Origin: Bacteroidota bacterium
GTDB taxonomy: Bacteria > Bacteroidota > Bacteroidia > Palsa-965
DNA length: 64,000 nucleotides
Direction of reading: 5' to 3'
Assembly: GCA_006218065.1 (NCBI GenBank)
Contig: VBWE01000002.1
Coordinates: forward strand, 10,154 to 74,153
A program made the translations under genes and the position numbers. Below are positions 42,814 to 64,000 of this stretch, piece by piece; the stretch's first letter is position 1; every line of letters begins with the position of its first letter. The notes beneath the pieces were generated by a model that ran no database searches, was not told the DNA's origin, and saw only the letters and a list, made by a program, of their open reading frames with translations.

Positions 42814-42821
42814 CAGATATA

Positions 42822-42855
42822 AAGGCTTGGAAGTCAAAAACTTCTGAGCCTTTTT
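42822..42855 (+). terminator. tRNA terminator hairpin plus T-run
   Basis: aggcttggaagt-caaaa-acttctgagcct followed by ttttt. Confidence 0.5.
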
Positions 42856-42926
42856 CTTTTTGTGCATTTTTCAACGCACGCAAAAAAACAAAAAGGTGCG
42901 GAATCTGAGTGCGGAAATGCGGAAAA

Positions 42927-44384
42927 TTAATCGGTGATATCGGGGTCTTTATCGGGCGTACTCTTCTTTCGGAGTTCTTTGAGCTCTGCTTCTCGCTTCT
43001 CTTTGTTAAAGACAGTAAAGTTCTGTGCGGCGTGCGCCAATATGCGCTTGTCGGCATAGTGCTTCTTCATGATTTTTGTGTTCGCATGGCCGGTGATTGC
43101 CTGCGCGTTTTCCATGCCGAGTTCGCCGGAGAGGTGGCTGATATTTGTTCTGCGCAGGCACCCAAACGTCAGTTCCTTGCCGGTTTGTAATTGCTCGTAG
43201 TAGTGAGAAAACGAACGAGATAGAAAGCTCGTTATGGTATCCCGCTGCATTGTTTCATCGGGAGCAATGAGGTAGGCGTCCTTGCCTTTGTGTTCTTCTT
43301 CCCCGAGTCGAGTGAGCAGGTCGCGAAGCTCGCTTGTCATGGGAGCATAGTTATACTTCCAGTTCTCCTCAGAGAGTCCTTTTTGTCGATTGACTTTATA
43401 ATCGGGAACTTGCAGATGGAGCGGAACTCCATTTTTGTCATAAACAACATCACTCCACTTCATGCGGGCGACTTCTTCGCGTCGCCTGCCGGAATAGACA
43501 CCAAGCTCAAGCGCATCTTTAAACCATGGTTTATAGAGATTCTTACGTTTGCCGTTTAAGAGAGTCCGCCAGCCGAGTTCGGGCTTTTGAACGATTTCGA
43601 GGAGGCGCATAAATTCATCCTCGTCGATTGTTTCTATGTTTTCATTGACTGCCTGTCGGGTAACTGTCTCAAACGGGTTGCCGATCAAGTAGCCCTGACG
43701 GGCAAGGTGTTTGTAGAAGCTCGTGAGAATCGACATTGCCCGGTTATATGAGCGAGGGCCCTGTTTTAAGTCCTCTTGCAGATACTTGTGGAACTTGCCA
43801 ATCATAGTATCGTTGATCTGGTCAACACGGAGGCTCTCGATGTCATAACCGCTCTTTTTGAGAGATGCTGCGAAGTACCGAAACATGCGCTCAACCTGTT
43901 CAATATGCTCTTTGGTTCGTTCTTTTTGCCGATGCTCAGGAACATTCTCGTTATTGAGAAAGCCGATGTATTCGGACATGAGCTCAAGCAGGTTGTACGT
44001 TTTCTCTGGTGTCTGTTCTGTATTTGGGAACACAGGACGAACAAGAGGCTCGATGGGAGCGACTGACACAAGCGGTACGGGTGCCGTTTTCTCTATTTCT
44101 GGCTTTCCCGCTTCTTTAATCTCTTTTTGAAAGTCGAGGGCTTGTTTTACAGCCTCGTCGTACTCTCGCGTTTCAAGAATCTTTGTTTTTCTCTCATTCT
44201 TTGTGCCTGGAACATGCACAATGACCTTGTATCTCTGTTTGTCGCCATACGCGCAGGTAGAGAGCGACTTGCCTGATTGTTTACACTTCCCTTCAACGAG
44301 GGTGCCGCATCCATAGCAGTATATTTTCAGGCCGGGAATCTTTTTCTTTGGCGGTATATGGAGCGGCTTCTCATCCATGCTCAT
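42927..44384 (-). CDS. int: tyrosine-type site-specific integrase
   Basis: The C-terminal catalytic region is ..LRRTNISHLSGELGMENAQAITGHANTKIMKKHYAD.. (R, HxxR, Y). It is tRNA-adjacent. Confidence 0.9.
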   Translation of the reverse strand: MSMDEKPLHIPPKKKIPGLKIYCYGCGTLVEGKCKQSGKSLSTCAYGDKQRYKVIVHVPGTKNERKTKILETREYDEAVKQALDFQKEIKEAGKPEIEKTAPVPLVSVAPIEPLVRPVFPNTEQTPEKTYNLLELMSEYIGFLNNENVPEHRQKERTKEHIEQVERMFRYFAASLKKSGYDIESLRVDQINDTMIGKFHKYLQEDLKQGPRSYNRAMSILTSFYKHLARQGYLIGNPFETVTRQAVNENIETIDEDEFMRLLEIVQKPELGWRTLLNGKRKNLYKPWFKDALELGVYSGRRREEVARMKWSDVVYDKNGVPLHLQVPDYKVNRQKGLSEENWKYNYAPMTSELRDLLTRLGEEEHKGKDAYLIAPDETMQRDTITSFLSRSFSHYYEQLQTGKELTFGCLRRTNISHLSGELGMENAQAITGHANTKIMKKHYADKRILAHAAQNFTVFNKEKREAELKELRKKSTPDKDPDITD

Positions 44385-44386
44385 AA

Positions 44387-44761
44387 TTATATCCCGGTTA
44401 AATATTGTCGCAAGTCGGAAAGGAAGCGAGATGCATGTTTTCCGGATGATGTTTGCACAGGGATGGATTTTTTCTTAGTATCTTTATGGAGCGAAAGCAA
44501 AAAAGCAACATCTCCATTCTGATGAGCCACTAATACTTTTGGCAATTGACGTTCACTGTACCGAGTTCTGAGGTATTTGACTATTGTTTGTAACCGAGCG
44601 GCTTCAAATTCTGATTTGATTACGTATTTCAAGCGACTTCCCTGATCCGAAAGGATGGCGACACTATGATTACGACACCATTTGTGGACTGAGCGTAAAT
44701 CTTTGTATCCCAATAAGGTGGCAACACGGGCAAGCGATAAACATTCGAGCGACGGTTTCAT
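44387..44761 (-). CDS. putative excisionase-like HTH DNA-binding protein
   Basis: ..LSLARVATLLGYKDLRSVHKWCRNHSV.. resembles excisionase/MerR-type HTH. Its stop abuts the integrase start. Confidence 0.5.
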   Translation of the reverse strand: MKPSLECLSLARVATLLGYKDLRSVHKWCRNHSVAILSDQGSRLKYVIKSEFEAARLQTIVKYLRTRYSERQLPKVLVAHQNGDVAFLLSLHKDTKKKSIPVQTSSGKHASRFLSDLRQYLTGI

Positions 44762-45045
44762 TTTTCTCCTTCTCTGTGGTGTGCAGATATATGAAAAGGA
44801 GTAACTGTTACCGTTTGATATATATAATGTAGGGGCAGGCTTGAAAAAGAGGGCTGTTACCGAATAACATATACTATGTATGACCTAAAATCAGGCGAAT
44901 AATAAAGAGAAAACCAGCTAAAATAATCCATCGTGGAAAGGGGGAAATGTCCTCCCCAAGAACGGACATAACAATTGCTAAAATGTAAAAACTATGAAGA
45001 CTCACCGGAAAAAAGGCGCTCAAATGCGCCCAGAAAAAAGGGATT

Positions 45046-45765: not shown

Positions 45766-45849
45766 ATGCTGGTGTGATATAGTGTAGACAGAATGATAAT
45801 CCGCTACCGTCTGAATGTCAGATAGTAGCGGATTTTAATTGAAACAAAG

Positions 45850-46050: not shown

Positions 46051-46086
46051 GATTCGATCCCAAGCCCCGCTATAGCGGCGGCTTTT

Positions 46087-46893
46087 TTATTTCACATCAA
46101 ACTTCTGTATCGGATAATTCGCTATCAACACCTCTATTTTCCGTTTCGTTTTTACTGCCCGGTTCGATGAGATCGCAATCGGTAGGTCGAGTTTTACCAT
46201 GTACCACCCATTTTGTGCGACCGCTTGGTCAAGCAGCATCGAAGGATATGAAGAGAGCAGGAATTTTCCTTTGATGGTTGCAAGTAGCTTAAGGAGTTCC
46301 AGATAATTTGCTTCAGAGTAACCGCTATAGTGGCCCTGATGAGTGCCGATATATGGCGGATCACAGTAAAAGAAGCTTGTTTCAGAATCACGGGAGCGAA
46401 TGACTTTAAGCGCATCCGTGCATTCGATCTGCGCATGTTCAAGGCGTTTGGCAAAGATGGCTGTGCAGTTTTCTTTCTTGTTATTGAAGCGATGGACGGC
46501 GGTGTTCTCTGTTCGGCCATATCCCCATGAACCGTTTAAACTCGATGCGTAACTCTGATAGATGCGCACCCAGACAGCCCAGGCGCGTTTGACCTTATCA
46601 AAAAACGCAGGGAGTGAAAGGATGAAGGATGCGTATTCATGGGCAGCACGAGCATACAGGGTATTTCGGATTTCTCTTTGCAACGCCGGGAAATTGTTTT
46701 TGACGACGTGATAGAAATTAACAAGCTCAAGATTCGTATCGTTAATGACTTCAATCTTCGATGCTTCCTTCGCGAAGAAAACCGCCCCGCCGCCGAAGAA
46801 TGGTTCCGCATAGAGCGTGTGTGGTGGGATGAGATGCAGGATTGTTTTTACCAAACGTTGCTTTCCTCCGTAATAGGAGAGGATGGGTTTCAT
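46087..46893 (-). CDS. dam: DNA adenine methyltransferase (Dam / D12 class N6-adenine MTase)
   Basis: ..LSYYGGKQRL.., ..EPFFGGGAVFF.. (AdoMet binding) and ..FFYCDPPYIGTH.. (DPPY catalytic motif) are present. The start is at the internal Met MKPILSYYGGK. Confidence 0.85.
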   Translation of the reverse strand: MKPILSYYGGKQRLVKTILHLIPPHTLYAEPFFGGGAVFFAKEASKIEVINDTNLELVNFYHVVKNNFPALQREIRNTLYARAAHEYASFILSLPAFFDKVKRAWAVWVRIYQSYASSLNGSWGYGRTENTAVHRFNNKKENCTAIFAKRLEHAQIECTDALKVIRSRDSETSFFYCDPPYIGTHQGHYSGYSEANYLELLKLLATIKGKFLLSSYPSMLLDQAVAQNGWYMVKLDLPIAISSNRAVKTKRKIEVLIANYPIQKFDVK

Positions 46894-47024
46894 GGATGAC
46901 GTGAGGAAGCCGCTCGCTTCCCTTTTGTGTATTGCTACCCTGTGAGAAAAGGGATCACTAACACACGAGAGCATTCAAGGATCTTCTTTCGAAGATGATG
47001 AACGCTACCTGATAATGTCGACTG

Positions 47025-47263: not shown

Positions 47264-47797
47264 TTATGTATAGCGCGTTTTTCGCGCTAAGGCAGCGACT
47301 TTTCGGCGCAGGGTCAGCGCGTTTTCTTCTCTGGTGTTAATTAAGACCTGCGCGTTTTTTTCGCTGGTGTGGAAAAGTGCCGGATGTGGCCGGAAGCAAA
47401 GGCGAAATTTTCCTTTCCGCTTTTCAGGCGTATCAAGCAAGGTCCCGTGAATATCAAAGACCCTGAATGCGCCTGTATCGACGCAGCGTTGAATAGCAGG
47501 TGAGATAGCCTTTCGAGAGAGGCCGGTTTTTGCCTGGAATTGGCTAATGGAAATCCAATCCATTTCTTTTCGTTCCGACATGGTTCTCTCATCACTCCAC
47601 CCGATTGTATTGCGTATGACAAGACTGAATACCATGAATGCCGAGCCGCTTTCAAGCTCCCGCATCCAATAATCAACAACCTCGTTCGGAACGGGGTACG
47701 TTTTGTGCCAGGCCATATATGGGCTTGCGATGTATTCTCTATTAAGCAATTCAGGAAGCCGTGTCGTATTCGTCCAAGCCAAGCTTGTCCAAATCAA
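47264..47797 (-). CDS. putative winged-helix DNA-binding protein (phage replication/regulatory-like)
   Basis: The HTH-like segment is ..ISISQFQAKTGLSRKAISPAIQRCVDTGAF... The start may be at the internal Met (47716), which would avoid overlap with ORF 47751..47990. Confidence 0.45.
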   Translation of the reverse strand: MIWTSLAWTNTTRLPELLNREYIASPYMAWHKTYPVPNEVVDYWMRELESGSAFMVFSLVIRNTIGWSDERTMSERKEMDWISISQFQAKTGLSRKAISPAIQRCVDTGAFRVFDIHGTLLDTPEKRKGKFRLCFRPHPALFHTSEKNAQVLINTREENALTLRRKVAALARKTRYT

Positions 47798-49343: not shown

Positions 49344-49841
49344 ATGAAAAAAGATCGAAAAAGCTTTGCCTATATAGACAGCGCAAATTTGTACAAAGGA
49401 TGTATCGCAGAAGGGTTTAGAGTGGATTACAAAAAACTAAGAATATATTTAGAGGAACGGCATGGTGTAAAAACCGCTTATATGTTCATCGGTTTTGTCG
49501 GAGGCAATGAAGAAATGTATAAAAACTTTCAAGAGTGGGGCTATACACTTATTTTCAAGCCAACTATACCGGGTGAAAATGGCGTTATTAAAGGCAACTG
49601 CGATGCTGAATTAGTGTTGCAATCAGTCTCTGATTTTTATGAGCAGAAATACGAGCAGTCTGTCATTGTTTCAAGCGACGGTGATTTTGCATGCCTGATT
49701 AAATTTCTCTTAAAGCGTGATGCGCTTGATTGTATATTAAGCCCGAGGGCAGAAGAAAAATGCTCAAGCCTGCTGAAGACGGTTGGGGCAAAACTGACAT
49801 TCCTGCCGCAAGTAAGAGACAAGATCAGCTTGCAGAAATGA
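49344..49841 (+). CDS. NYN-domain (LabA-like, PIN-fold) protein
   Basis: ..FAYIDSANLYKG.., ..NCDAELVL.. and ..VIVSSDGDFACL.. are acidic residues typical of the NYN ribonuclease domain. Confidence 0.7.
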   Translation: MKKDRKSFAYIDSANLYKGCIAEGFRVDYKKLRIYLEERHGVKTAYMFIGFVGGNEEMYKNFQEWGYTLIFKPTIPGENGVIKGNCDAELVLQSVSDFYEQKYEQSVIVSSDGDFACLIKFLLKRDALDCILSPRAEEKCSSLLKTVGAKLTFLPQVRDKISLQK

Positions 49842-50113: not shown

Positions 50114-50497
50114 CTATTTCAGCCTCGGTGTTCCTGCAATAGTAATAGCCCTCATTGCCTTTACTGTTTTCTTCCCCTTACGCATGAAATAGGTCTGCAG
50201 CATGACACGCTTGCGCGGGGCAAGATCGCAGAGATTGGCATGACCGGAGAGCTCGAGCGTGTCGCCTGCTGTACCGATGTGATACGCTTCGATTTCAATA
50301 GACTGATACGTTATATACTTCGCTTTGTTTTTGATACGGAGCGATACGTTTACGCATGAATCGTTTTGCGACAGGACGGTGATTTTTGTTTTGAGATACT
50401 TGCCGTGATCGATGCGCTCATTTTTGATGCGGGCTTCACGAGAAGACGTGCAGGCGAATAAAAGAGACAAGAGGAAAAGAAGAAGCGCTCGTATCAA
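50114..50497 (-). CDS. hypothetical lipoprotein
   Basis: The product starts with a signal peptide and lipobox: MIRALLLFLLSLLFAC. Its start overlaps the upstream gene. Confidence 0.55.
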   Translation of the reverse strand: MIRALLLFLLSLLFACTSSREARIKNERIDHGKYLKTKITVLSQNDSCVNVSLRIKNKAKYITYQSIEIEAYHIGTAGDTLELSGHANLCDLAPRKRVMLQTYFMRKGKKTVKAMRAITIAGTPRLK

Positions 50498-51282
50498 AGC
50501 CTGAAACGGAGATATGCGTTTGCGAATACGCCATTAAATTCTAATGAAGCTTGTTTCTGAGTCCCCGATGCGCCTATTTCCCATACTTCTCCATAAACAT
50601 CTTTGAGCTCCGAGATGGTGTGGTATCGGTATCCTGATTGTATGCCGAAGTAGATTGTTTTTGATATGATTGGATATTCGATTTGAAGCGATGGAGCGAT
50701 AGAAATTCCCTGTCCTTTCATTTCAGCGGTATTTGCGATGACTACTAATGCGAATGCCGTGTCGCTCGGAGTATAGACATCTATTCTTGTTTTCCCGAAA
50801 CCATACCCGGCCTCAACTATGCCGTTTATTCCAAGCCGTTGGATGAACGGCTTTGTACTCTTGCCGAATCCGCAGAGCGAACTGACGGATACTTGCGGCT
50901 GGATGCTGACAACGTGCGAAGAGACGGTGAAAAATGATTTGCCGTAATATGTGCGCTGCACGGTTTGGTTGTTTATCACTTCCCACGTAATGAACTCCGG
51001 TGTTCCTTCCCGCTTCCCTGCCAGGTATGCGTACGAGAATCCAAGACTCCACGTGGAATCAAAACTGTACATCATCGAGCCGGTAATTCCGATGCCGGAG
51101 GAAACTCCTTTTGGAAATAGTTTTGCAGGCACAGCGAATTCGTCAAAATACCTTTTGTTCAATGATGCCATGCTGAATTGATGGAAGCCTGAGCCGCCGG
51201 AGAGGGAGAGTTTCCGCTCTTGGGAAAACGTCATCAACGCACAACAGAAAAGAAAGACAAGCACCGTTAAAAACCGCTTCAT
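50494..51282 (-). CDS. putative outer-membrane beta-barrel protein
   Basis: The product has a signal peptide, alternating hydrophobic beta-strand pattern and a C-terminal ..YLRFRL. Confidence 0.5.
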   Translation of the reverse strand: MKRFLTVLVFLFCCALMTFSQERKLSLSGGSGFHQFSMASLNKRYFDEFAVPAKLFPKGVSSGIGITGSMMYSFDSTWSLGFSYAYLAGKREGTPEFITWEVINNQTVQRTYYGKSFFTVSSHVVSIQPQVSVSSLCGFGKSTKPFIQRLGINGIVEAGYGFGKTRIDVYTPSDTAFALVVIANTAEMKGQGISIAPSLQIEYPIISKTIYFGIQSGYRYHTISELKDVYGEVWEIGASGTQKQASLEFNGVFANAYLRFRL

Positions 51283-51283
51283 A

Positions 51284-52243
51284 TTAGAAATGTATTTTTA
51301 CTTCGCCGGTTCCGTCGGCGTTCATGATGTAAATATTGCTCTCCGAGAATATAGTATTATCGCCAATCAATTTCTGATCCCATCTGCTTGCAATAATCTT
51401 GCTGCCGTCTCCGGAAATATCGATAACCACATACAATTTGGTGTCGCAGAATGTCTTGATGATCTGCGTCTGTAAACCGGGCAGGTCTGTTATGAAAAAA
51501 GAACGTGATGTTTTCCAAAGCAGGCGCTGAGAATCCGGGAACCAGTCGCTGTAGCTGATGATGTCTTTCGCGTCGCCGATCTCGATGGCAGCGACTTCCG
51601 AAATCTGCCCGGTGTTCGGATTGATACTGATAATTGCATTTGATGAAGGGCCAGTGCTCACGGGAGAAGATATTTTTTGGCTGTCATTTGACCAGGAGCC
51701 GTTGCTCAATATAAATCCGGGAAGCGTATCGAGAGGATTGCCCTCATCATCTGCAATGATCGAATAGTTATTTGCCCCGTCTGTCCGCCGGAACACGTAT
51801 CTATCCCCCGCATAATTCCACACGGCATCGAAGCATGACGAGGTGAATGTTAGTTGAGTCAGACTGTCGCCGTTGCTTTTGATCTTCCACACATTGTTGT
51901 CGCCGTGATTGAAAAGAATCCAGCCGTTTCTTCCCCAGTCGGGTTTTTGAAATATGCTTGTTGTGAGAAGATAGTCGTTACCGGTCGAGCGGTTTTTTAT
52001 TCGCAGTTCCGTTTGACCGGTACTTTTCGTTTCTCGCACATAGACGAATTCATTACTGTTATTTGGATTGAAGCACGGAGCGAGATAGAGAGAGGCCGGA
52101 TATTGGTATGAATATCCAAACGGTCCCGTTGATGGCGGGAAGTCAAAACAATTCCCCTCAAGCGAGAAAGCAATATCCTTGCTGCATGAAAAAAACAACA
52201 TGCAGCAAGAGATAATCGCTATGGCTCGGTGTAAAGAAATCAT
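51284..52243 (-). CDS. lipoprotein with TolB-like (PD40/WD40-like) beta-propeller repeats
   Basis: The product has a lipobox (..CCMLFFSCSK). Repeated ..DG..I.F.S.R.G..NIY...DG.. patterns are present. Confidence 0.5.
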   Translation of the reverse strand: MISLHRAIAIISCCMLFFSCSKDIAFSLEGNCFDFPPSTGPFGYSYQYPASLYLAPCFNPNNSNEFVYVRETKSTGQTELRIKNRSTGNDYLLTTSIFQKPDWGRNGWILFNHGDNNVWKIKSNGDSLTQLTFTSSCFDAVWNYAGDRYVFRRTDGANNYSIIADDEGNPLDTLPGFILSNGSWSNDSQKISSPVSTGPSSNAIISINPNTGQISEVAAIEIGDAKDIISYSDWFPDSQRLLWKTSRSFFITDLPGLQTQIIKTFCDTKLYVVIDISGDGSKIIASRWDQKLIGDNTIFSESNIYIMNADGTGEVKIHF

Positions 52244-55200: not shown

Positions 55201-55728
55201 CACGAAATCGGAGTTCAGTGCATTTCCCGTGCCAACGCTTGCGCCGGTTATGTACACGTTGCCGGTATTGTCGAGGGCTATTGCCGCTGCAATATCGTTT
55301 TTGTTGCCAGTACCGTTATACAATACGCTCCAGAGGAGACTGCCGGTTGCACTGTATTTGAGCGTTACAAAATCATAGCTGCTCGTCGCATTACTCCAAG
55401 TTGCACCAGTTACGAAAATATTACCGCTATTGTCCCGGATGATCGCGCTGCCGAAATCAGGACCGTTCGATGTTCCGTTGTATTGCTGTTGCCAGCAAAT
55501 CGTTCCGTTAGAATTGTATTTGACGGTCAGGAGATTCGTTCCTTGACTTATTGTCTTGGTATTTCCGACAATAACAGCGCAGCCGCTGTTATCTATAGCC
55601 GTCATGGTGAAATCAACCGTATCGGGAAACGCGTTGACGGCTTCCCATTCGCGATTACATAATGTTGTTTGTCCGTCTACACCGTATGCTCCAGCTATCA
55701 GGAGAGAAATAAGAATAGCCTTTTTCAT
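52240..55728 (-). CDS. S8-family subtilisin-like serine peptidase with N-terminal SBBP beta-propeller repeats and T9SS C-terminal sorting domain
   Basis: SBBP repeats recur (..DNSGNIFVTG..DFVTLKYS..G..W..). The subtilase catalytic triad motifs are GVYDSGID (Asp), HGTACAGIIG (His) and GTSAAAPHVSG (Ser). The T9SS tail is ..FPNPSNNSFSIPVS..GAYIATVTT... Confidence 0.85.
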   Translation of the reverse strand: MKKAILISLLIAGAYGVDGQTTLCNREWEAVNAFPDTVDFTMTAIDNSGCAVIVGNTKTISQGTNLLTVKYNSNGTICWQQQYNGTSNGPDFGSAIIRDNSGNIFVTGATWSNATSSYDFVTLKYSATGSLLWSVLYNGTGNKNDIAAAIALDNTGNVYITGASVGTGNALNSDFVTIKYNGAGMQQWVKRYNFANLPDIPFGLAVDNAGNSYVAGSSASSFFNSDITVIKYNTAGTQVGAYRHAISGNGYDKATAITLDNAGNVFVSGGTAQNTTAGNALVLKLNTALTLQWVQQYNGENLEDCANALALNANGDVIFTGYTKKTNGGKDFTTAKYSAAGIQQWVKREAAPSPTDFGEAHKLTVDNSGNVYVTGEMTNAAGNKDYLTIKYDSSGTKAWENFFNAPTNASDKSFDVSIRNSTMYVTGKSSTGNADQYATIKYSFLETALVVDTTSLPGMAFATGEVVVRFDPSVIDTPAVNDPDKQFGVLHEFVKPSAIAVMNAKLGTDVTDWKVAKIFLKLSTNDTVSISRLGDTVPISSFWAALRLFVQPGMEIAVADSLNTVQPEIWYAHPNYVAELADVPNDPQYISNQFSLHPNNPFPSAGINIEPAWDIEKGNATIRVGVYDSGIDQTHPDLQGKVAGGFNFITNAPLAPTYDLLGHGTACAGIIGALRDNSTGIAGIAGGNGTAQYDGVTLFDMKLFDANSAVATYSLIANGVVGGATSTTQGGYGLHIMNNSWRGDAGPLPAASISLLKDAVRFAARNNVVVVGARGNDGNSNITVPACYNDEFVLNVGSTGNDGEYKTPSNGSSSYSSSYGGGMDFCAPGDLDIVYTLESITNGYQPFDGTSAAAPHVSGTAALMVSKVNTQTTPFLFHLAPEDIEYLLQAAAVDLSVSPSAPGYDQYTGYGRINAGQSLTFVNYPAYKVYHFATNTTGSSVSPSLFAQNVAVILPNNYQSVAAGAYLADIHKVTHTLNYAPIPVGETILSAWPRYNSSFGWSLSNPIGTEAWSTIVSYTNNQAVMETYFYHFTFNLTTGQAVNTFLPTTQFGTLCAFSVLTFDPTLTGMTESASNAVNVGEPFPNPSNNSFSIPVSLSEASAVTVDLYDMQGRLVKSTNMGKLAEGMHTTTIETTDVSDGAYIATVTTEKGSIQKKMIVVHK

Positions 55729-56025: not shown

Positions 56026-56475
56026 TCATTGGACATCTTTAATTTTCATGGCCATGATCTTCCAGATATCCTCTTTGCATTGCAGATAGCATTCACCAGA
56101 AAATTGTATTACCGATCCTTTTTGATAAAACGTACAAATTGTCGGCGACTTGACCTTTTCTTTCGGTTCTTCCATTACGATCTGAATGTCTTGTATATAA
56201 CCGTCGGGGAGAGAAGTACTGGCCAGCCATATGTTTTTATTAGGAGATCCTTTTGCAGTCCATTTGAGCACATAGAATGAGCCAAACCCTTCATTGTGTT
56301 CTTCATGTATGCTTGTTTTCTCAAAATGTGTTATTAAAAATTCACCCGTTGATTTAAAATTGATCCATTGGGTAAAAAAATCTTGAACAACAGTAAGCTG
56401 TTTATCTGTCTCTGTGTTCCCACAAGAGATGAAGCCACAGATAAAAAGGAAACCGAAAATTAGGTTCGTTTTCAT
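56026..56475 (-). CDS. hypothetical lipoprotein
   Basis: The product starts MKTNLIFGFLFICGFISCGN. Confidence 0.5.
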   Translation of the reverse strand: MKTNLIFGFLFICGFISCGNTETDKQLTVVQDFFTQWINFKSTGEFLITHFEKTSIHEEHNEGFGSFYVLKWTAKGSPNKNIWLASTSLPDGYIQDIQIVMEEPKEKVKSPTICTFYQKGSVIQFSGECYLQCKEDIWKIMAMKIKDVQ

Positions 56476-56508
56476 GAGAAACAGGTTTTAGGGTAAAACG
56501 TAGATGTA

Positions 56509-57687
56509 TTATCGGATTTTCTTCAAGAGTTCTTCCGTCCCGGAGACATCGGAAACGCCTTCAATTTTTGCCAGCCGAATTGCTTCGCGCGCAGATTTCT
56601 CCGCATCTTCTTTCCGGCCGAGCGTGTAGAGAAGAGCGGCATACGTGTCGGTATTGGCATAGGCGGCGTGCATGTCGATGGATTTTTTCGCCCACCCAAG
56701 TGCTTTGGCGAGATAGACGGTATCGCTCACCTGTTTATAGAACGCCCATGCCATATTATTTAACCCCCAGATATCATTCGCAGGCATGTGCTGTTCGACA
56801 AACCGCGTGGCCGTTTTTGCATAGGCGTTCCAGTTTTTTGTACGCTCGTAATACGAGATATCCATGCCAGTCAAAAAACGGTCGGCATTCGGCAGCTTGA
56901 GCGCAAGAACATCACTCCGGAGTTTCAGATAGCCGAGCGTATCGACCGGTTTTTTTTCAAAGAGCGTATTTCTCATTGCACCCCGGTACACGCGTTCAAT
57001 CACCAACGCGACGGAATCAGCCGTGTAACGGTTTTCAAAGGCAGACCGGTGGGAGCAGAGATATTGGAAAGAATGTGTATTCGGGTCTGACACAAAATCA
57101 CGGAGTACGGTCCAGCTTTCCCGGTTGAGGTATTCGGTCTCGGAAAGTGTGGCTAAAAACGCGTTCGTTTCCTCTTCTACCGGCAGGCAGCAGGCGCGTT
57201 TCATGTTCATATAGTGGATAAGCTCCTTCGCCTGCATCTTCCCTGTTTCATACTGTGTTTGGTATGCGGCAAAGCATGTTTGCGGAGTACTGGTTTTCTC
57301 GCCAATAGCAACAAATGGCGCGACCAGATATGCTCCGCTGACCCTATGGATAAGCACTCCTTTCTCGTCGAGAAATAGATATGTCGGGAAGCAGCGCACA
57401 TCGTACCGCTTGGCGATCTCGATTCCCTCTCCTTTTTCCATGTCGAATTTGCTGGAGATAAAATGAGTGTTGTAAAACTGCGCTGCCGTATCGTTGGCAA
57501 AGACATTTTTGTCCATCCACTTGCACGGCCCGCACCAGGTTGTGTAGCAGTCGAGAAAAACAAGTTTGTGTTTCGTTTGCGCTTTCTCAAGCACGCAAGC
57601 GAGTGAGCCGCTTTCAAAGCGGATTTGCGCGGAAAGGGATGCTACAAGGAGCAGCAGGGCGAGGATAAAGAGAGATCGGTTTTTCAT
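56509..57687 (-). CDS. secreted thioredoxin-fold protein
   Basis: The product has a signal peptide. ..FLDCYTTWCGPCKWMDKNVF.. carries a CxxC thioredoxin motif. The C-terminal half is helical and TPR-like. Confidence 0.7.
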   Translation of the reverse strand: MKNRSLFILALLLLVASLSAQIRFESGSLACVLEKAQTKHKLVFLDCYTTWCGPCKWMDKNVFANDTAAQFYNTHFISSKFDMEKGEGIEIAKRYDVRCFPTYLFLDEKGVLIHRVSGAYLVAPFVAIGEKTSTPQTCFAAYQTQYETGKMQAKELIHYMNMKRACCLPVEEETNAFLATLSETEYLNRESWTVLRDFVSDPNTHSFQYLCSHRSAFENRYTADSVALVIERVYRGAMRNTLFEKKPVDTLGYLKLRSDVLALKLPNADRFLTGMDISYYERTKNWNAYAKTATRFVEQHMPANDIWGLNNMAWAFYKQVSDTVYLAKALGWAKKSIDMHAAYANTDTYAALLYTLGRKEDAEKSAREAIRLAKIEGVSDVSGTEELLKKIR

Positions 57688-57783: not shown

Positions 57784-58014
57784 GTGAAGGGCAAGAGTTC
57801 AAAACAGTTTCGAAAAGCGCTTGGGCAAAGGATTCGGGTACTCCGGAAAAGCCAGAAGATTTCCCAGGCTCAGCTTGCGTATGAAGTCGGTGTTACCCGC
57901 GAGACAATCGTGTATATCGAGCGCGGAGTACAGAATGCGACGACGGATGCGATCTACAATATTGCGGTTGCTCTCGGCATATCCATGAAGGAATTGCATG
58001 ATTTTGAGTGGTAG
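57784..58014 (+). CDS. XRE-family HTH transcriptional regulator
   Basis: ..LGQRIRVLRKSQKISQAQLAYEVGVTRETIVYIERG.. Confidence 0.75.
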   Translation: MKGKSSKQFRKALGQRIRVLRKSQKISQAQLAYEVGVTRETIVYIERGVQNATTDAIYNIAVALGISMKELHDFEW

Positions 58015-58108: not shown

Positions 58109-58351
58109 GTGAATGCGTCAGACAAGAAGTACCTGTGTGCGCTTGGAAAGGCTATCCGCGAACTGCGGGAAGCTCAAGGAATTTCTCAAGATCAGCTTGC
58201 ATATGAAAGCGGTCTCCACCGGACGACTATAAATCGGATTGAAAACGGTCACTTCGATGCTGGTGCGTTAGCGCTTCGCGCAATCGCCAAAGCACTCAAT
58301 GTTCCGACGACCGGTGAGATTTTCTTGTTTGAGAAGAAGGAGGGGAAATAA
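58109..58351 (+). CDS. XRE-family HTH transcriptional regulator (paralog of 57784..58014)
   Basis: ..LGKAIRELREAQGISQDQLAYESGLHRTTINRIENG.. Confidence 0.75.
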   Translation: MNASDKKYLCALGKAIRELREAQGISQDQLAYESGLHRTTINRIENGHFDAGALALRAIAKALNVPTTGEIFLFEKKEGK

Positions 58352-58811: not shown

Positions 58812-59282
58812 ATGAAGGCCATGAAAAAGAAACAATTTGTCAGCGATGTTCAACTCACCTACCAACGGACCGACATTCCGACGGTCAAAATTCTCTCATC
58901 CTTTGATGCCGTACAGCCATGTATCGACCTTATTCCAAAAGGACAAATCGCGTTACGTGAATTCTTCGGCACGCTTCTCCTGAATCGGACAAACCACGTA
59001 TTGAATCGCTGCCTGCTTTCCTCGGGAGGCTCCTGCTCAACAGTCGTTGATATCAAACACCTGATGCAATACGTCATTCTTTCCAATGCAGTTGGGATCG
59101 TTTTATTTCACAATCACCCGTCAGGAAATGTCCGGCCCTCTGCCCAGGACTGCAGCACGACAAGGCAGATCAAAGAAGCCTGCCGGATTTTCGATATCAA
59201 TCTGCTCGATCACATTATCCTTTCAGGATACCCGCTTGAAGATCCGGGCTTCTTCAGCTTCTCGGATAACGGGATGCTGTAA
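58812..59282 (+). CDS. radC: RadC-like JAB-domain protein
   Basis: ..VVDIKHLMQYVILSNAVGIVLFHNHPSGNVRPSAQD.. is the JAMM/RadC signature (HNHPSG). Confidence 0.85.
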   Translation: MKAMKKKQFVSDVQLTYQRTDIPTVKILSSFDAVQPCIDLIPKGQIALREFFGTLLLNRTNHVLNRCLLSSGGSCSTVVDIKHLMQYVILSNAVGIVLFHNHPSGNVRPSAQDCSTTRQIKEACRIFDINLLDHIILSGYPLEDPGFFSFSDNGML

Positions 59283-59381
59283 GGTGGTTCATTTTATATA
59301 CCGCGGCTCGATCTTTGAATCGAGTCGCGGTTCGTTTGTATCAGCAATTAAACTATTTTGGTAATACCTATAAGAAAACTC

Positions 59382-60050
59382 ATGAGAACGATTTTATTAT
59401 TCCTCCTGGCAACAACACTTCTTTGTACAGGTACCGGCGCGATTAATAAAGAAAAACCCTGTTCGGAAACGTTTAGTGGAAAAAGGCGTGAAATAGTAAA
59501 AACAAACATTGCAAGCGGAGTACAGACAACAATTACTATTTCCGAACTATATAACAGGCCGATGCCGAGTGAAAAAACAATGAAAGAAAAGTATAAAGTG
59601 ACCGATAAATCTGGACGGAGTGAACCGGAAAAGGAAAACGTAACAATTATCTGCTGGTTATATACCTATGTTCATGAAGGAGATGGTGACTATCATCTTA
59701 TTATTGGAAGCTCGTCGGACAAGGATAAAGCGCGATTTTTTAGTGCAGAAATATCTGGCTTACCGAAAAAGACGTCCATAAATTATAAATATTACAACCA
59801 GCTAAAAAAAGCAAGGGACCAGTTTAAATCGCTTATCGCAGATTATTCACCATGTCCTTCGACATACGTCCAAAGTCTTTTCGATAAACCCATGAAAATT
59901 GAAGTTACTGGAAATCTTTATTGGGATACCGAGCATGCTGGTGGTAGTTGCTGCTCGGGAACAACAAGAAAGAAGGATGGGTTTGTATTTAAATCAGAAT
60001 CACCTTGGGAAATTCATCCTGTAACAGAGATTCATCCCATTGAAGATTAG
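59382..60050 (+). CDS. secreted hypothetical protein
   Basis: The product starts with the signal peptide MRTILLFLLATTLLCTGTGA. No recognisable domain is present. Confidence 0.5.
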   Translation: MRTILLFLLATTLLCTGTGAINKEKPCSETFSGKRREIVKTNIASGVQTTITISELYNRPMPSEKTMKEKYKVTDKSGRSEPEKENVTIICWLYTYVHEGDGDYHLIIGSSSDKDKARFFSAEISGLPKKTSINYKYYNQLKKARDQFKSLIADYSPCPSTYVQSLFDKPMKIEVTGNLYWDTEHAGGSCCSGTTRKKDGFVFKSESPWEIHPVTEIHPIED

Positions 60051-60093
60051 AAAAACAATTCTAAAATGATTAAGAGTAGAGCAGGTAGAAACG

Positions 60094-60621
60094 TTAAAAC
60101 CAATTGAATGATTTTGTGTTTGAAAGCCTGAATGTCATAGCCTGACTGCTAACGTTAAAGAGGTTTGCCAACTCTTGGATTGAACCCTCTTCGGTTAAAT
60201 CGTAGTTGTGATTCTTAATTTCCCGAAACAATATTTTTTCAGGCATCAGCAAAGCAGCAGCAAATGCATTGGCTTCTTGTTCTTTTCGAATTTCTTTCGT
60301 GGTAGACTTTTGGCTCCTAAATTCAACTCTAAATCCTTTATCAATAAAAAGACCGCCGATATTTCCATGTAGAACGAAATGGCCAAATTCATGAGCAATA
60401 GTAAATCGCTGTCGTAATGTCGATTCGTTTGGATTATATCCAATAATGCCAACACCATTACTTATTACCAAAACTCCCGAAACATCTTCTCCTAAATCGT
60501 AGGGTTTGACCTCAAGTCCATAGCTAGTTGCAATTTTGTCAACAGGTATAGGGAGTTCATTAATTTGCAAATCATCCAGGATTTTTGCGGTTTTTCTTTC
60601 AATGGCTGATCTGTCATTCAT
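60094..60621 (-). CDS. ImmA/IrrE-family metallo-endopeptidase
   Basis: The HEXXH motif is ..FTIAHEFGHFVLH... It follows an XRE gene with a 2-bp gap. Confidence 0.8.
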   Translation of the reverse strand: MNDRSAIERKTAKILDDLQINELPIPVDKIATSYGLEVKPYDLGEDVSGVLVISNGVGIIGYNPNESTLRQRFTIAHEFGHFVLHGNIGGLFIDKGFRVEFRSQKSTTKEIRKEQEANAFAAALLMPEKILFREIKNHNYDLTEEGSIQELANLFNVSSQAMTFRLSNTKSFNWF

Positions 60622-60973
60622 GGCGCACAGAGATTTGTGTATGAACGTGTTCGATGAAATCAATTAGTTGCTCTTTGGAGCGTTTTCCGATATTAGATTC
60701 TTTGACGATTCGTTTTTGTATTTCAGAATTTGCAACTTCTGAAGTAGTAAAGCCTGGGAGCAGCTTTGCCACATCTATTTTAAGCACTTTTGCCATATCC
60801 CACAGTGTATGAGTCGGAGTATGTTGTCTCCCCTTTTCGATATTCACTATGGACGCTCTGCTAAGCTTGAGTAATTTAGCAAGAGTTTCTTGCTTTAAGC
60901 CAGCGGTAACCCTGGCAGTCTTGATGTGTGCACCAAGGGCTTCATAAAACCGTTTTTGTTCGGAAACAGTCAT
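60614..60973 (-). CDS. XRE-family HTH regulator (ImmR-like partner of ImmA)
   Basis: ..LGAHIKTARVTAGLKQETLAKLLKLSRASIVNIEKG.. Confidence 0.75.
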   Translation of the reverse strand: MTVSEQKRFYEALGAHIKTARVTAGLKQETLAKLLKLSRASIVNIEKGRQHTPTHTLWDMAKVLKIDVAKLLPGFTTSEVANSEIQKRIVKESNIGKRSKEQLIDFIEHVHTQISVRHE

Positions 60974-61387
60974 TACTAAGGATTGGTTGGGCAAATATAG
61001 GTAAAAGTTGAATATCGCAAACTGTTTGTATTATTTTACTTTTGTAAAATTGATTATTTGCAGTATTTGACATTTTAAAAAAAAATTATATTTTTGTTTC
61101 AACACCACTATTGTTAAAGATAACGTATGAATGTGAAAATCCCCAGATGGTGGTTCATCCAGGGATTTTAGGAATGCAAACAGTTGGACTTTGAGCAAGG
61201 CAGAGCCTTGTGCATTCCCCTTTTGTTACGCGAGTAACGGCACAAATATAACGGCGATTATTTGCTTAGCAAATAAATCTGCTGTCGTATCTGGCCCGGC
61301 ACAACAAAAGTATCCATCAAAGCTGCCGGGATCAGTCTCTTCCCGTGATTTTGAGGCATATTAATTAAACTTCAAATCTGTAAAAAG

Positions 61388-61612
61388 ATGGCGAAGAAAA
61401 ATGTGCATGTAGTTCCCCGCGGTAAAAATTGGGCCGTTGTCGGAGCCGGAAACGAAAAAGCAACTGCGGTGACAAACACCCAGGCTGAAGCAATCAAAAT
61501 TGCAAAGCCTATTGCGAAAAACCAGCAATCTGAACTTGTCGTTCATGGCACCGATGGCAAAATCAGAGAAAAGAACTCATACGGGCCAGATTCCTTTCCA
61601 CCGAAAGGATAA
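61388..61612 (+). CDS. DUF2188-family small protein
   Basis: MAKKNVHVVPRGKNWAVVGAGNEKATAVTNTQAEAIKIAKPIAKNQQSELVVHGTDGKIREKNSYGPD.. matches the DUF2188 pattern recalled from memory. Confidence 0.65.
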   Translation: MAKKNVHVVPRGKNWAVVGAGNEKATAVTNTQAEAIKIAKPIAKNQQSELVVHGTDGKIREKNSYGPDSFPPKG

Positions 61613-61698
61613 ATGTGAAAGGTTAAATTATAGAAGTGGGCGTTAGCCTGCTTCTATTTTTCTTTTTAATTAAATCGGCAAACACAAAAAGCAAACAC

Positions 61699-62100
61699 AT
61701 GAAAAACCTATACTTAATTCTTGATATTACCGAGGGAGCGACTGTGGACGAAATAAAGAAAGCTTACCGCGCACTCGCAAAGCAACACCACCCGGATAAG
61801 AATAATGGCAGTAAAGAATCGGAAGAACGTTTCAAGAAGATTCGAGAAGCCTATGAAATCTTGAGTGACGAGGACAAAAAGAGAGCATATGACTTCGAAC
61901 TTGCGCAGGCTCGTCGGGCCGAAGCGCAGGCGAAACGATATTCAAGCAATAGAACCGGATCAGCCAATACACATGGGATGCCATATCCCTCAATACCAAA
62001 ATTCAATTGGGGTGCAGCAGTAGCATTCTTTTTAATCTTTATTGCAATTGCAGCAGCATTCGCATCGGATGATAAACCCTCAAACTCAAAAATCGGATAG
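61699..62100 (+). CDS. J-domain (DnaJ-like) protein with C-terminal transmembrane anchor
   Basis: The J domain carries an HPD motif (..DEIKKAYRALAKQHHPDKNNGSKESEERFKKIREAYEILSD..). The C-terminal TM helix is ..WGAAVAFFLIFIAIAAAFA... Confidence 0.75.
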   Translation: MKNLYLILDITEGATVDEIKKAYRALAKQHHPDKNNGSKESEERFKKIREAYEILSDEDKKRAYDFELAQARRAEAQAKRYSSNRTGSANTHGMPYPSIPKFNWGAAVAFFLIFIAIAAAFASDDKPSNSKIG

Positions 62101-62102
62101 TT

Positions 62103-62942
62103 ATGGTATTTGTTAAACAAATCGGGAAGGGCGGACTTGGAATCGTCCAACTCTACAAGCATGAAAGAAGTGGAAATCTTTATGCTGTGAAGCGCATGCA
62201 GTGCGCCTGGGATAACAACCACTTTGAACGGTTTGTTCGTGAGATTAAACTCATGGCGAATCTCGTGCACAAGAACATCATGAAAATTTTGAAGCATGAT
62301 ATCGAAAACACAAGCCCATACTACATTATGCCGTTCTATAAAGAAGGAAGCTTGCGAGACCGGTTGAATGACATGAGCGGCAAAGGGAAAGTGTTTTCTC
62401 AGGAAGCTGCTGCATCAATCATTTTTGTTTTAGCTGAAGCGCTTGCCTATTCACATAAAAAAGGTGCTATTCATAGGGATTTGAAACCCGAGAACATCAT
62501 GTTTGAAGGAAGAGAGCCCATAATTGCAGATTGGGGCCTTGGAAAGTTTATTCACCGGGAATCAAAAGTACTTACAGGTGCCGGGTTAGGAACTCCTTTA
62601 TACTGTGCTCCCGAGCAATGGAATTACGGCAAGGCAGACGCAAGGTCTGATATTTATTCATTAGGGAGAATATTTAACGAGCTCCTTACGGGCAATATTT
62701 TTGGGCATGTAGCGAATGATCGGTTGCGGGCAATCATTAAAAAAATGACTCGAGAGAATCCGAATGAACGATACCAGAATATGGACGAGGTTATTGTTGC
62801 GATCAAGAACCTGCATGTAGTGAATGAAGAAGCCCCAATGGATGCATTTTGGGAAGGCTTGTTGATTGCCGGTGCTGCTATTGTGGCGGCAGCAGCAATA
62901 GCAGGGCTTCTCGCCTGGGCTTTTGGTGATAACTCCAATTAA
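62103..62942 (+). CDS. Hanks-type Ser/Thr protein kinase with C-terminal transmembrane anchor
   Basis: The glycine-rich loop is IGKGGLGIV. Also present are the catalytic Lys in AVKRM, the HRDLKPENIM catalytic loop, DWG in place of DFG, and APE in GTPLYCAPE. The C-terminal TM helix is ..LLIAGAAIVAAAAIAGLLAWAF... The start is 3 bp after the J-domain stop. Confidence 0.8.
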   Translation: MVFVKQIGKGGLGIVQLYKHERSGNLYAVKRMQCAWDNNHFERFVREIKLMANLVHKNIMKILKHDIENTSPYYIMPFYKEGSLRDRLNDMSGKGKVFSQEAAASIIFVLAEALAYSHKKGAIHRDLKPENIMFEGREPIIADWGLGKFIHRESKVLTGAGLGTPLYCAPEQWNYGKADARSDIYSLGRIFNELLTGNIFGHVANDRLRAIIKKMTRENPNERYQNMDEVIVAIKNLHVVNEEAPMDAFWEGLLIAGAAIVAAAAIAGLLAWAFGDNSN

Positions 62943-62983
62943 TAGGTAAGTGTAAAAAAGTAATACAATCCTAAAGCATTTTT

Positions 62984-64000
62984 ATGTCCATATCCAATAT
63001 TCCCGACCCTGTTAAATTTATTCTTTGGGCAAAGGCAGCAGGTCGTTGCCAATATGAAGGATGTCCGAAAATCCTGTACTTGGAAGATTTCACAAAAGCG
63101 GAATTCAATCAGGCTTATACCGCACACATAATTGCCGATGTGCCGACTGGTCCTCGCGGCGATGCAGTGCTATCTAAAAAGTTAAAGAAGGATATATCTA
63201 ATCTTATGTTGCTCTGCGATGCACACCATCGGTTGATAGACAAAGTAGATATAGCAGGACATCCCGTTGAACGTTTGTGTGAGATGAAACAGCGACATGA
63301 AAAAAGAATGGAGCTGCTTACTGCAATTCAAGAGAGTAAGCGGAGCCATGTTCTAATGTACGGGGCAAACATCGGGAAGCATGAAACTCCCCTTACTAAA
63401 AGTGAAGCCCATTTGGCAATGATACCTGAACGATATCCTGCAGAGGCAAATCCTCTTGAGTTAGGAATGAAAGCAAGCTCGCTCGAGGATCGAAATGAGA
63501 TTTTTTGGAAAGTGGAAGAAGAGCATTTGCAAACACGCTTTCAACAACGTGTCTCGCCTTTAAAGGGTACTCATGAAGTACAGCATTTCTCTGTATTTGC
63601 GATGGCTCCTCAACCGTTATTAATCAGGCTCGGCACGTTACTTTCGGATTTGTATCCCGCAGACGTATATCAACGACATCGGGAGCCAGCTACTTGGAAA
63701 TGGCAGGATAAGGCCGATGTCGAGGATTTCGAATTGATTGAGCCGACTGATAAGAGTGGTATACCGGCCCTTGTCTTTGCCCTGAGTGCAACCATAAACG
63801 ATGATCGCATCACGACTGCACTTGAGAACAAAGCTTCTATCTGGAAAGTCATGGTATCGAAGCCCGGGAATAACTTTCTAAGAAAGAAAGACCTGCTTGA
63901 AAAATTCCGAATGCGGACAAGACATCTTCTGAATGAAATAAAAGCTCACCACGGAGAGTATGCGAACATTCATGTTTTTCCCGCTATGCCGGTTTCTACA
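62984..64000 (+). CDS. HNH endonuclease-domain protein with C-terminal uncharacterised (possibly SAVED/CARF-like) region; partial, continues beyond window
   Basis: The frame is open for 339 codons from ATG 62984 to the window edge. It is not in the ORF track because there is no stop. The N-terminal HNH motifs are ..GRCQYEGCPK.., ..AHIIADVPTGPRGD.. and ..NLMLLCDAHHRLIDK... The C-terminal ~200 aa (..HFSVFAMAPQPLLIRLGTLL..IHVFPAMPVST) has no confident assignment. Confidence 0.7.
   Translation, partial: MSISNIPDPVKFILWAKAAGRCQYEGCPKILYLEDFTKAEFNQAYTAHIIADVPTGPRGDAVLSKKLKKDISNLMLLCDAHHRLIDKVDIAGHPVERLCEMKQRHEKRMELLTAIQESKRSHVLMYGANIGKHETPLTKSEAHLAMIPERYPAEANPLELGMKASSLEDRNEIFWKVEEEHLQTRFQQRVSPLKGTHEVQHFSVFAMAPQPLLIRLGTLLSDLYPADVYQRHREPATWKWQDKADVEDFELIEPTDKSGIPALVFALSATINDDRITTALENKASIWKVMVSKPGNNFLRKKDLLEKFRMRTRHLLNEIKAHHGEYANIHVFPAMPVST

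Follow-up and report, generated by a model that had tools for sequence, protein, structure and literature searches.

A 34.8-kb element in the tRNA-Asn gene of an uncultured groundwater Bacteroidota bacterium: a highly probable integrative and mobilizable element with defence genes and a T9SS-tagged protease

Integrative and mobilizable elements (IMEs) are recognized by a recombinase of their own with flanking attachment (att) repeats, by genes for DNA processing, and by the lack of a type IV secretion system (T4SS); their definition and the known Bacteroidetes examples are set out by Guedon et al. (2017; PMC5704250). Integration into tRNA genes is established for the Bacteroidetes IMEs NBU1/NBU2, MTnPi4, and Tn6031, and two putative Streptococcus IMEs combine a VirD4 coupling protein of their own with a canonical relaxase (PMC5704250). 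Carriage of defence systems by integrated elements is likewise established, through a survey of chromosomally integrated mobile genetic elements (ciMGEs; PMC10201445). Here, we describe an element of an uncultured groundwater Bacteroidota bacterium, the left part of which lies in the window, by which we mean the whole 64,000-nucleotide stretch of contig VBWE01000002.1. It is highly probable that this is a 34.8-kb IME that has entered the 3' part of the tRNA-Asn(GTT) gene by site-specific recombination.

The element is an undescribed example of an established kind: it leaves the current picture of IME function unchanged and calls for no new mechanism, and literature searches found no description of it or of type IX secretion system (T9SS) cargo on IMEs. 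Its interest is of another sort. A tRNA-adjacent island of an uncultured bacterium can be fully delimited from metagenome contigs; the members of its family bring a coupling protein of their own, target the 3' halves of tRNA genes, and shuttle phage-defence systems; and the cargo includes a complete operon for a secreted protease.

Ends and insertion site of the element

The island starts directly after an intact tRNA-Asn(GTT) gene, the sole tRNA that ARAGORN finds in the window, with an integrase gene at the junction, 112 nt downstream. A sequence-only reading of the window had described this arrangement and had placed the right attachment site (attR) beyond the window, as a direct repeat of the tRNA 3' end; the window indeed holds no second copy of that end. 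How far, then, does the island reach? Exact-protein look-up of a kinase encoded in the window (62103-62942) leads to a 196-kb ENA contig (ERZ27284376 k119_135821) and to a Logan contig (SRR8863435, a groundwater data set; PMC11549363); wherever they overlap the window, both are 100% identical to it. From there the relaxase gave access to the right end. The same proteins are found on a 306,696-bp NCBI contig of a metagenome-assembled genome (MAG) named 'Bacteroidetes bacterium' (locus tags FD123_*), and an independent assembly from a second sample (L087) contains the left (attL) junction. In all, 82 kb were examined, in extended coordinates that continue the window numbering past 64000.

The predicted repeat is there. 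The attL core, CTGTTAATCATGGGGTCCCTGGTTCGAGCCCAGGAGGGGGAGC, recurs as a perfect 43-nt copy in the same orientation, attR, at extended coordinates 77609-77651 (L083 4576-4618, - strand); an exact-sequence search for the repeat gave one match against none expected, and the copy was also read directly. The lack of a right-end repeat, which the earlier reading had named as a result that would speak against an island, is thus not what the extension shows: the repeat is present at 43/43 positions. The element occupies 42815-77651 (34,837 bp), and the window holds its left ~21 kb (42815-64000). Directly after attR come a tRNA-type terminator-like hairpin and then genes of higher, host-like GC content: two small ones without a known family, one for a 602-aa FG-GAP protein with a T9SS tail, and one for a histidine kinase. 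The GC content is 0.442 in the island against ~0.52 in the left core (the preceding 27 kb), and it is 0.52 again ~1.2 kb past the right end, in keeping with the earlier remark that the island is AT-rich relative to the core.

The two ends also share a smaller motif. The 11-mer GAGTGCGGAAA is present in three copies in the 82 kb, at 42907 and at extended 77493 and 77517; all three have one orientation and lie within ~125 nt of the element ends, with none elsewhere, and from this placement we infer candidate arm-type integrase sites. The integrase has candidate catalytic residues R301, R412, H433, and Y443, read in its sequence. The 124-aa protein encoded next to it had been called a Xis-like helix-turn-helix (HTH) protein; its position and an HTH-like helix pair agree with that label, which has zero profile support: there is no match in Pfam, NCBIfam, or PHROGs, and a single-sequence AlphaFold2 (AF2) model (pLDDT 41.7) is unusable.

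Contig breaks fall at these repeats too. The break in the Logan contig at the start of L084 lies inside the 43-nt repeat, and L089, a contig with a related element, also starts inside its tRNA-Asn repeat. Such breaks were considered as a sign of excision and rejected, being expected where a 43-nt repeat exceeds a short assembly k-mer.

The divergent pfkB/tRNA-Asn pair is conserved across Bacteroidota, and none of 14 tRNA-Asn-bearing pfkB loci, from species with 72-82% PfkB identity, carries an island gene beyond the tRNA. The closest relatives in a collection of 5.8 billion proteins have PfkB identities of 93% and 90%: the contig of the former ends inside the tRNA, and in the latter ECF-sigma and FecR genes come after tRNA-Asn, an integrase is missing there, and the DNA shows no similarity to the island. 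Vertically inherited core with the same genes at this locus, the other result that had been named as adverse to an island, is therefore not seen at the 14 loci or in the 90% relative.

The surroundings of the insertion site show further irregularities. Between the pfkB start codon and tRNA-Asn lies a 168-nt segment (42373-42540), single-copy in the window, with 37-nt terminal inverted repeats that are 92% complementary; it looks like an insertion of the miniature inverted-repeat transposable element (MITE) type because it is missing from the 93% and 90% PfkB relatives. A 19-nt sequence (42646-42664), 89 nt upstream of the tRNA-Asn gene, exactly duplicates 42735-42753, that is, the tRNA-Asn leader and the first 14 nt of the tRNA; close relatives hold one copy, and the duplicate could be a remnant of an earlier rearrangement at a hotspot. 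Rearrangements around tRNA-Asn are also indicated by homologs of a 2275-aa PKD protein encoded in the window, which directly adjoin the tRNA in some relatives (L006, L010).

Mobilization operon, family, and type of the element

Past the window, the remainder of the Cap5 gene is followed by genes for a CD-NTase, an E2-only Cap2-like protein, and a caspase-like protein, all within the element, then by several genes without a known family and by those for a PF03432 relaxase, a 182-aa protein, and a VirD4-like coupling protein. The last three belong to a right-end operon of eight genes, which points inward from attR and encodes, in order, a 97-aa protein, two ~150-aa paralogs, a 343-aa protein with four transmembrane (TM) segments, a 231-aa lipoprotein, the coupling protein, the 182-aa protein, and the relaxase. 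The relaxase has an HYHVH motif and an intact His-triad; the 482-aa coupling protein has intact Walker A (GGTGVGKS) and Walker B (FFLVDEA) motifs and scores only 33 bits against Bacteroides MobC; the 182-aa accessory protein is a coiled-coil. The 343-aa four-TM protein, also a coiled-coil, and the 231-aa lipoprotein (extended 74398-76121; L083 6106-7829) have no known family. Their genes are kept beside the coupling-protein gene in the related elements L089 and L090, and the two proteins could dock the element onto a helper channel or mediate exclusion.

Relatives of the relaxase number 308 in JGI, ENA, and Logan assemblies. Three of their contexts were read (L089, L090, and L099), with gene-by-gene comparison for L089 and L090; the relaxase identity is 72% in L089, 68% in L090 (same sample, other contig), and 55% in L099 (a 3.07-Mb genome). 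Common to L089 and L090 are the coupling protein (52-58%), the 182-aa, 231-aa, and 343-aa proteins, and RadC; L090 additionally has the small paralogs, the 222-aa neighbour of RadC, the Dam methylase (46%), and the integrase (30%), and the gene calls of L099 have the same order in the mobilization operon. The cargo differs in all three (ArdC; NACHT; McrBC+Dcm+Vsr; the Pycsar/CBASS-like genes PycTM+cyclase+E2; KAP NTPase; a type I restriction-modification (RM) system), the last three items of this list being among the cargo of L099. The L089 contig opens, precisely at its mobilization-operon end, on a 27/28-nt match to this tRNA-Asn core, and the corresponding end of L099 (4980-5160) carries a tRNA-Leu(TAA) 3' fragment that starts in the anticodon loop, beside repeated CAGCACTCC motifs. 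The family thus targets tRNA 3' halves, and a switch of tRNA specificity has taken place among its members. It appears widespread in environmental Bacteroidota, and the same backbone at other tRNA sites with other cargo implies that the family has been mobile in the recent past.

What kind of element is this? Because a relaxase and a coupling protein are present, and neither T4SS nor phage structural genes were found, the element is read as an IME and not as an integrative and conjugative element (ICE) or a prophage: it has its own recombinase with flanking att repeats, DNA-processing genes, and no T4SS. It belongs to the less common class of IMEs that bring their own coupling protein. The sequence-only reading had seen no conjugation or phage structural genes in the window, where the scanned genes indeed gave no T4SS or structural match, and had left the type open; the relaxase and the coupling protein beyond the window settle it.

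A self-transmissible ICE, its mating-pore genes too divergent to recognise and perhaps including those for the four-TM protein, the lipoprotein, and the small proteins, is very improbable. The element does encode a coupling protein and a relaxase, and the former is adjoined by conserved membrane and lipoprotein genes without a family assignment; however, profile scans of all called genes of the 34.8-kb element found no match to a T4SS (VirB4/Tra), let alone a complete T4SS with its VirB4-type ATPase between attL and attR, and no open reading frame (ORF) in it is able to be such an ATPase, the proteins above 450 aa being the S8 protease, the integrase, the type IV coupling protein (T4CP), and a 492-aa exported protein without an NTPase motif. 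Five small conserved genes are far below any known mating-pair formation (MPF) type, and L089, L090, and L099 are also without T4SS genes within 10 kb. Slimmer still are the chances of a prophage remnant or phage satellite that sits at the tRNA and moves independently of conjugation. It would suit the tRNA site with its adjoining integrase, the RepO-like winged helix-turn-helix (wHTH) protein, the weakly 'late sigma'-like protein, the ImmA/XRE switch, and Dam, but Pfam and PHROG scans detected no capsid, portal, terminase, tail, or lysis families among the element genes and no virion or packaging-hijack genes, the mobilization proteins are present, and IMG/VR holds no relatives. Somewhat more credible, though still unlikely, is that the island has decayed, can no longer move, and is passed on by vertical descent: its copies, 100% identical to one another, all stem from a single set of related samples, and no assembly that carries the element has an empty site or a circular form. 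Against such decay stand direct repeats that are perfect (43/43), integrase, relaxase, and coupling-protein ORFs that are full length with their catalytic motifs, no evident pseudogenes, and relatives with the same backbone at tRNA sites of their own.

A number of results nonetheless weigh against the IME reading. The family assignments of its two key proteins are modest: the relaxase matches NCBIfam TraI/MobA(P) weakly (40 bits, cutoff 250), and the coupling protein is nearest to the NCBIfam CD1115 VirD4-like family, at 233 bits (cutoff 250). An origin of transfer (oriT) was not identified, the intergenic region between the 231-aa and T4CP genes being unconserved between L083 and L089 and having no convincing hairpin; neither was an excisionase in the element, nor a helper conjugative element. 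The integrase has no close relatives in JGI metagenome contigs or IMG/VR contigs, and a second tyrosine recombinase means that the structure could be composite or nested. None of the relatives compared (GTDB species relatives and the 93% and 90% genomes) shares synteny with the right flank, and the GTDB species relatives are not syntenic past the tRNA either. The attB site was reconstructed from the tRNA 5' part, the core, and the right flank; it has no exact match in JGI metagenome contigs, exact PfkB and integrase look-ups returned occupied sites only, and the assemblies examined contain no empty attB, attP circle, or strain without the element. The comparison with related strains that the earlier reading had called for thus succeeds by half: island genes are missing from the 14 loci and from the 90% relative, but there is no true empty site, and a presence/absence polymorphism of the element is something that we infer. 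The case for insertion is made by the perfect repeats, the compositional contrast, the integrase and mobilization modules, and the comparison within the family.

Cargo of the variable region

Between the two backbone ends lies a variable region, filled mostly with anti-phage and regulatory genes plus the protease block (Table 1).

Table 1. Features at the tRNA-Asn locus and in the left part of the element, in window coordinates
Feature	Coordinates	Strand	Evidence
tRNA-Asn(GTT), integration target	42740-42814	+	ARAGORN; divergent pfkB/tRNA-Asn layout kept across Bacteroidota
attL core, 43 nt, anticodon loop to tRNA 3' end	42772-42814	+	blastn 43/43, E=7.7e-16
Candidate arm-type integrase-binding repeats (GTGCGGAA / GAGTGCGGAAA / TGCGGAA)	42896-42924	+	repeat count
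Tyrosine integrase, 485 aa, Cys-rich N-terminus	42927-44384	-	Pfam Phage_integrase 5e-8, Phage_int_SAM_5 5e-6
124-aa protein at the position of an excisionase (recombination directionality factor, RDF), candidate only	44387-44761	-	upstream of int, co-oriented; HTH-like helix pair
Divergent ECF/sigma-70-like protein, 239 aa	45046-45765	+	Sigma70_r2 1.9e-5
Orphan D12-class N6-adenine DNA methyltransferase (Dam-like), backbone gene	46087-46974	-	PF02086 9e-28
Winged-helix protein, phage replication initiator O-like	47264-47797	-	PHROG 678 1.8e-10
Second tyrosine recombinase, Xer/integron-integrase-like, 289-314 aa	48198-49142	-	Phage_integrase 2e-26
NYN-domain nuclease	49344-49841	+	PF01936 1.8e-9; PADLOC NYN 1e-7
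127-aa lipoprotein, last operon gene	50114-50497	-	start overlaps upstream stop; lipobox LLFAC; no family match
262-aa putative outer-membrane beta-barrel	50494-51282	-	OMP_b-brl 2.8e-4, below Pfam cutoff; signal peptide
319-aa lipoprotein, conserved protease partner	51284-52243	-	start overlaps S8 stop; lipobox LFFSC; no Pfam match
1162-aa protease: signal peptide, SBBP beta-propeller, S8, T9SS type A C-terminal sorting domain	52240-55728	-	profiles
149-aa lipoprotein and 392-aa exported thioredoxin-fold protein (CxxC) with helical C-terminal domain	56026-57687	-	Thioredoxin_7 3e-10
Two XRE-family HTH regulators	57784-58014, 58109-58351	+	HTH_3 5e-12 and 5e-15
RadC-like JAB protein (58812-59282) and conserved 222-aa exported protein, backbone	58812-60050	+	RadC 1.4e-29
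ImmA/IrrE M78 (60094-60663) and XRE repressor (60614-60994), ORFs overlap	60094-60994	-	Peptidase_M78 5e-24, HTH_3 1.3e-10
DUF2188 protein, J-domain protein with TM tail, Ser/Thr kinase with TM tail	61388-62942	+	DUF2188 2e-23, DnaJ 4e-26, Pkinase 6e-42
Cap5-type HNH-SAVED effector, 376 aa, first 339 aa in window	62984->64000	+	SAVED 5.6e-35

The protease operon (50114-55728, - strand) consists of four genes that abut or overlap. Its 1162-aa product matches Pfam Peptidase_S8 (PF00082; 1e-29, 104 bits) and SBBP (1e-20), the S8 catalytic residues are found at D628 (DSGID), H663 (HGT), S851 (GTS), and N738, and the tail matches both Por_Secre_tail (PF18962; 5e-12, 46 bits against a cutoff of 27) and TIGR04183 (6e-12, 45 bits against a cutoff of 23). 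The protein thus joins a Sec signal peptide to a type A C-terminal domain, the combination by which type A cargo of the T9SS is recognized. The 319-aa lipoprotein is probably a TolB/Tricorn-like beta-propeller; its orthologs follow the S8 gene on three other contigs, L092 (56%), L094 (33%), and L100, the L100 copy has a faint Tricorn_N match, and the place of the 262-aa gene is taken in L100 by one for a 228-aa OMP_b-brl_2 protein. Upstream of the operon lies the gene for the 392-aa thioredoxin-fold protein, which has a signal peptide and a WCGPC motif, so that the block runs 392-aa thioredoxin, 149 aa, S8, 319 aa, 262 aa, 127 aa, with the second, Xer-like recombinase beyond the NYN gene. The earlier description of these four genes as an envelope operon holds for the T9SS-tagged S8 protease and, by their signal sequences, for two lipoproteins; the outer-membrane beta-barrel that it also named is a weak call (2.8e-4).

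Full-length proteins with the SBBP-S8-C-terminal domain (CTD) architecture, 1150-1170 aa long, are common in environmental Bacteroidota, and hundreds of proteins of the phylum match in architecture and size. The nearest S8 homolog (61%) is that of L092 (CAZSEN010000002.1, GCA_964605995.1), where the order is thioredoxin (46%), S8, 318 aa (56%), 228 aa, and, further on, a recombinase fragment; this module adjoins RadC (56%) and XRE genes, and the contig looks, from these neighbours, like a related element. In L100, a 42% homolog stands in the order S8, 317 aa, OMP_b-brl_2, and is apparently chromosomal. In L094, a duplication of the recX 5' end (281 nt, 98.2% identical) brackets the genes for a 46% homolog and its 318-aa partner, as if this two-gene unit had entered a core locus by Campbell-type insertion and left a footprint; the duplicates lie at 9665-9945 and 14642-14922, and the organism is a common one (24 contigs). 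The S8 module is missing from the three backbone relatives L089, L090, and L099. To judge from these contexts, the protease operon is conserved as a unit in Bacteroidota and is also carried by mobile DNA, and the earlier proposal that a T9SS protease is transferable cargo is upheld by its lack in the three backbone relatives, the 61% homolog in L092, and chromosomal copies elsewhere. The companion suggestion of a secreted virulence factor finds no support, the host being a groundwater MAG.

What would the protease do for such a host? T9SS tails are also present on products of the core flanks, the 2275-aa PKD/Ig-repeat protein (16251-23078) and the 602-aa FG-GAP protein past attR, and the 82 kb examined contain no genes for T9SS machinery; the host probably has a T9SS. 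The protease most likely passes Sec export and then the host T9SS, and works at the cell surface or in the extracellular space to the benefit of the host. With a complete T9SS-dependent protease operon on an IME, the secreted T9SS repertoire can therefore change by mobilization and not only vertically, which matters for how groundwater and freshwater Bacteroidota degrade proteins and for the biology of their surface. An invertible promoter for the S8 operon was considered and rejected: the 23-nt, 83% complementary pair at 52165-52187/55808-55830 is about what chance would give in 22 kb, by our estimate.

The second recombinase, which the sequence-only reading had missed, scores 156 bits against the NCBIfam XerA-like family (cutoff 220) and could serve multimer resolution, or be a remnant or agent of a nested cassette. 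The latter option would make the island a composite, that is, an IME backbone that holds a nested or formerly independent cassette (~48.2-57.7 kb), which moves separately between elements and chromosomes; we consider this possible, though improbable. Such a cassette would be bounded by the Xer-like recombinase and hold NYN, the S8 operon, and the thioredoxin; the same block order is found in L092, the backbone relatives are without the whole block, the GC content climbs to 0.52 inside the S8 gene, and the S8 and 318-aa pair of L094 sits within its recX duplication. Yet the block has neither repeats nor att-like sites at its borders in the window, where repeat pairs are within chance by estimate; the L092 counterpart of the recombinase, at the matching place downstream of the S8 module, is only a 166-aa fragment with 27% identity; and the L100 operon is apparently chromosomal, with no recombinase. 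It is a more speculative thought, and an unlikely one, that thioredoxin, S8, lipoprotein, outer-membrane protein, and recombinase make up a self-contained surface-remodelling cassette that circulates between IMEs and chromosomes of environmental Bacteroidota and, when on an IME, serves the element. Were it so, the protease might, for example, shave surface receptors, thereby excluding phages or competing conjugative elements, and a cassette serving the element would fit the defence-dominated cargo better than a nutritional protease does.

Returning to the IME and the rest of its variable region, the gene at the window end had been noted as that of an HNH nuclease; it does encode an HNH protein, more specifically the Cap5 HNH-SAVED effector of a cyclic oligonucleotide-based antiphage signalling system (CBASS). 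The PADLOC scores are 4.7e-156 for the endonuclease effector, 4e-132 for the cyclase, and 3e-46 for the E2 protein; the CD-NTase (413 aa) and E2 (149 aa) genes follow that of the effector past the window and are adjacent in L001. With CD-NTase, E2, and SAVED-HNH proteins co-encoded, the system is by gene content a type II-short CBASS with a Cap5 effector. The DUF2188, J-domain, and kinase genes form a tightly packed trio 41 nt upstream of the effector gene; the kinase (62103-62942) matches PADLOC PD-T4-6 (7e-45) and mad6 (3.5e-48), and the trio may be a separate kinase-based defence system or a CBASS accessory.

Dam, NYN, and RadC, listed as cargo by the earlier reading, are borne out by the PF02086, PF01936, and RadC profiles. 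PADLOC classes the Dam-like gene, 46% identical to its L090 counterpart, as MTase_II/oMTase, and the RadC and 222-aa genes are 49-58% identical to genes in L089, L090, and L092. Of the regulators in that list, the sigma factor, the XRE proteins, and the ImmR/ImmA pair stand, with a corrected count: there are three XRE proteins in total, and the third belongs to the pair. It is plausible that the ImmA/XRE pair and the other XRE proteins are switches. The NCBIfam ECF matches of the 239-aa sigma-like protein are under their cutoffs, and in PHROGs it has a weak 'late sigma' likeness; the Pfam Phage_rep_O match of the winged-helix protein (6e-4) is also under its cutoff.

Outside the element, the window has a low-GC patch (0.36-0.45) at 9000-16000, with an IS1595-family transposase (10809-11852), an SDH/ClpP-like serine protease (12231-13265), a PIN-PhoH protein (14326-15657), and several small genes without a known family. 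This patch is probably a second variable or mobile region.

Transfer cycle and comparison with known systems

In the transfer cycle that we propose, the integrase, perhaps assisted by the 124-aa protein and the GAGTGCGGAAA arm repeats, would recombine attL with attR to release a circle, and excision would restore the tRNA-Asn gene with its own terminator. The relaxase would then nick a putative oriT, and the coupling protein of the element would bring the nucleoprotein to the mating channel that a conjugative element in the same cell provides. Once the element has reached the recipient, the integrase would re-insert it into tRNA-Asn, with the element supplying a replacement tRNA 3' half and its own terminator.

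In its mode of integration, the element resembles NBU1/NBU2, MTnPi4, and Tn6031: these, too, are Bacteroidota elements in which a single tyrosine integrase lies next to the target, a tRNA 3' end, and in which the repeat preserves the tRNA. The NBU-type trait of tRNA 3' integration by a Phage_int_SAM_5 tyrosine integrase is found here with 43 nt duplicated; the target differs, being tRNA-Asn here and Leu, Ser, or Pro in the others. The likeness to NBU-type IMEs extends to a MobP-like relaxase, lack of a mating pore, and dependence on a helper, which for this element is predicted, and is drawn from gene content. Unlike NBU-type IMEs, which rely on the coupling protein of the helper, this element has its own 482-aa T4CP and 182-aa accessory protein. 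It is also three to four times the size of NBU1, and its cargo consists of phage defence and a secreted protease rather than antibiotic resistance.

The Streptococcus IMEs with their own VirD4 offer the closest parallel for the mobilization genes: integrase, relaxase, and own coupling protein without MPF genes, with the coupling protein proposed to replace that of the helper. Those IMEs, however, belong to Firmicutes and have MobC relaxases, whereas this one is from Bacteroidota and its relaxase is of the PF03432, weakly MobP, type. As in the defence islands of the ciMGE survey (PMC10201445), CBASS stands among defence-like genes in the variable region of an IME, and the relatives have defence systems at the same place. 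The CBASS itself departs from other type II-short Cap5 systems in its order, effector, cyclase, E2, and in the DUF2188/J-domain/kinase trio directly ahead of it. Finally, the protease has the full-length architecture and the size of T9SS type A SBBP-S8-CTD subtilases, together with their downstream partners, a beta-propeller lipoprotein and a small outer-membrane protein; unlike the chromosomal T9SS subtilases, its operon rides on a mobilizable element, as apparently does that of L092, and its nearest homolog is only 61% identical.

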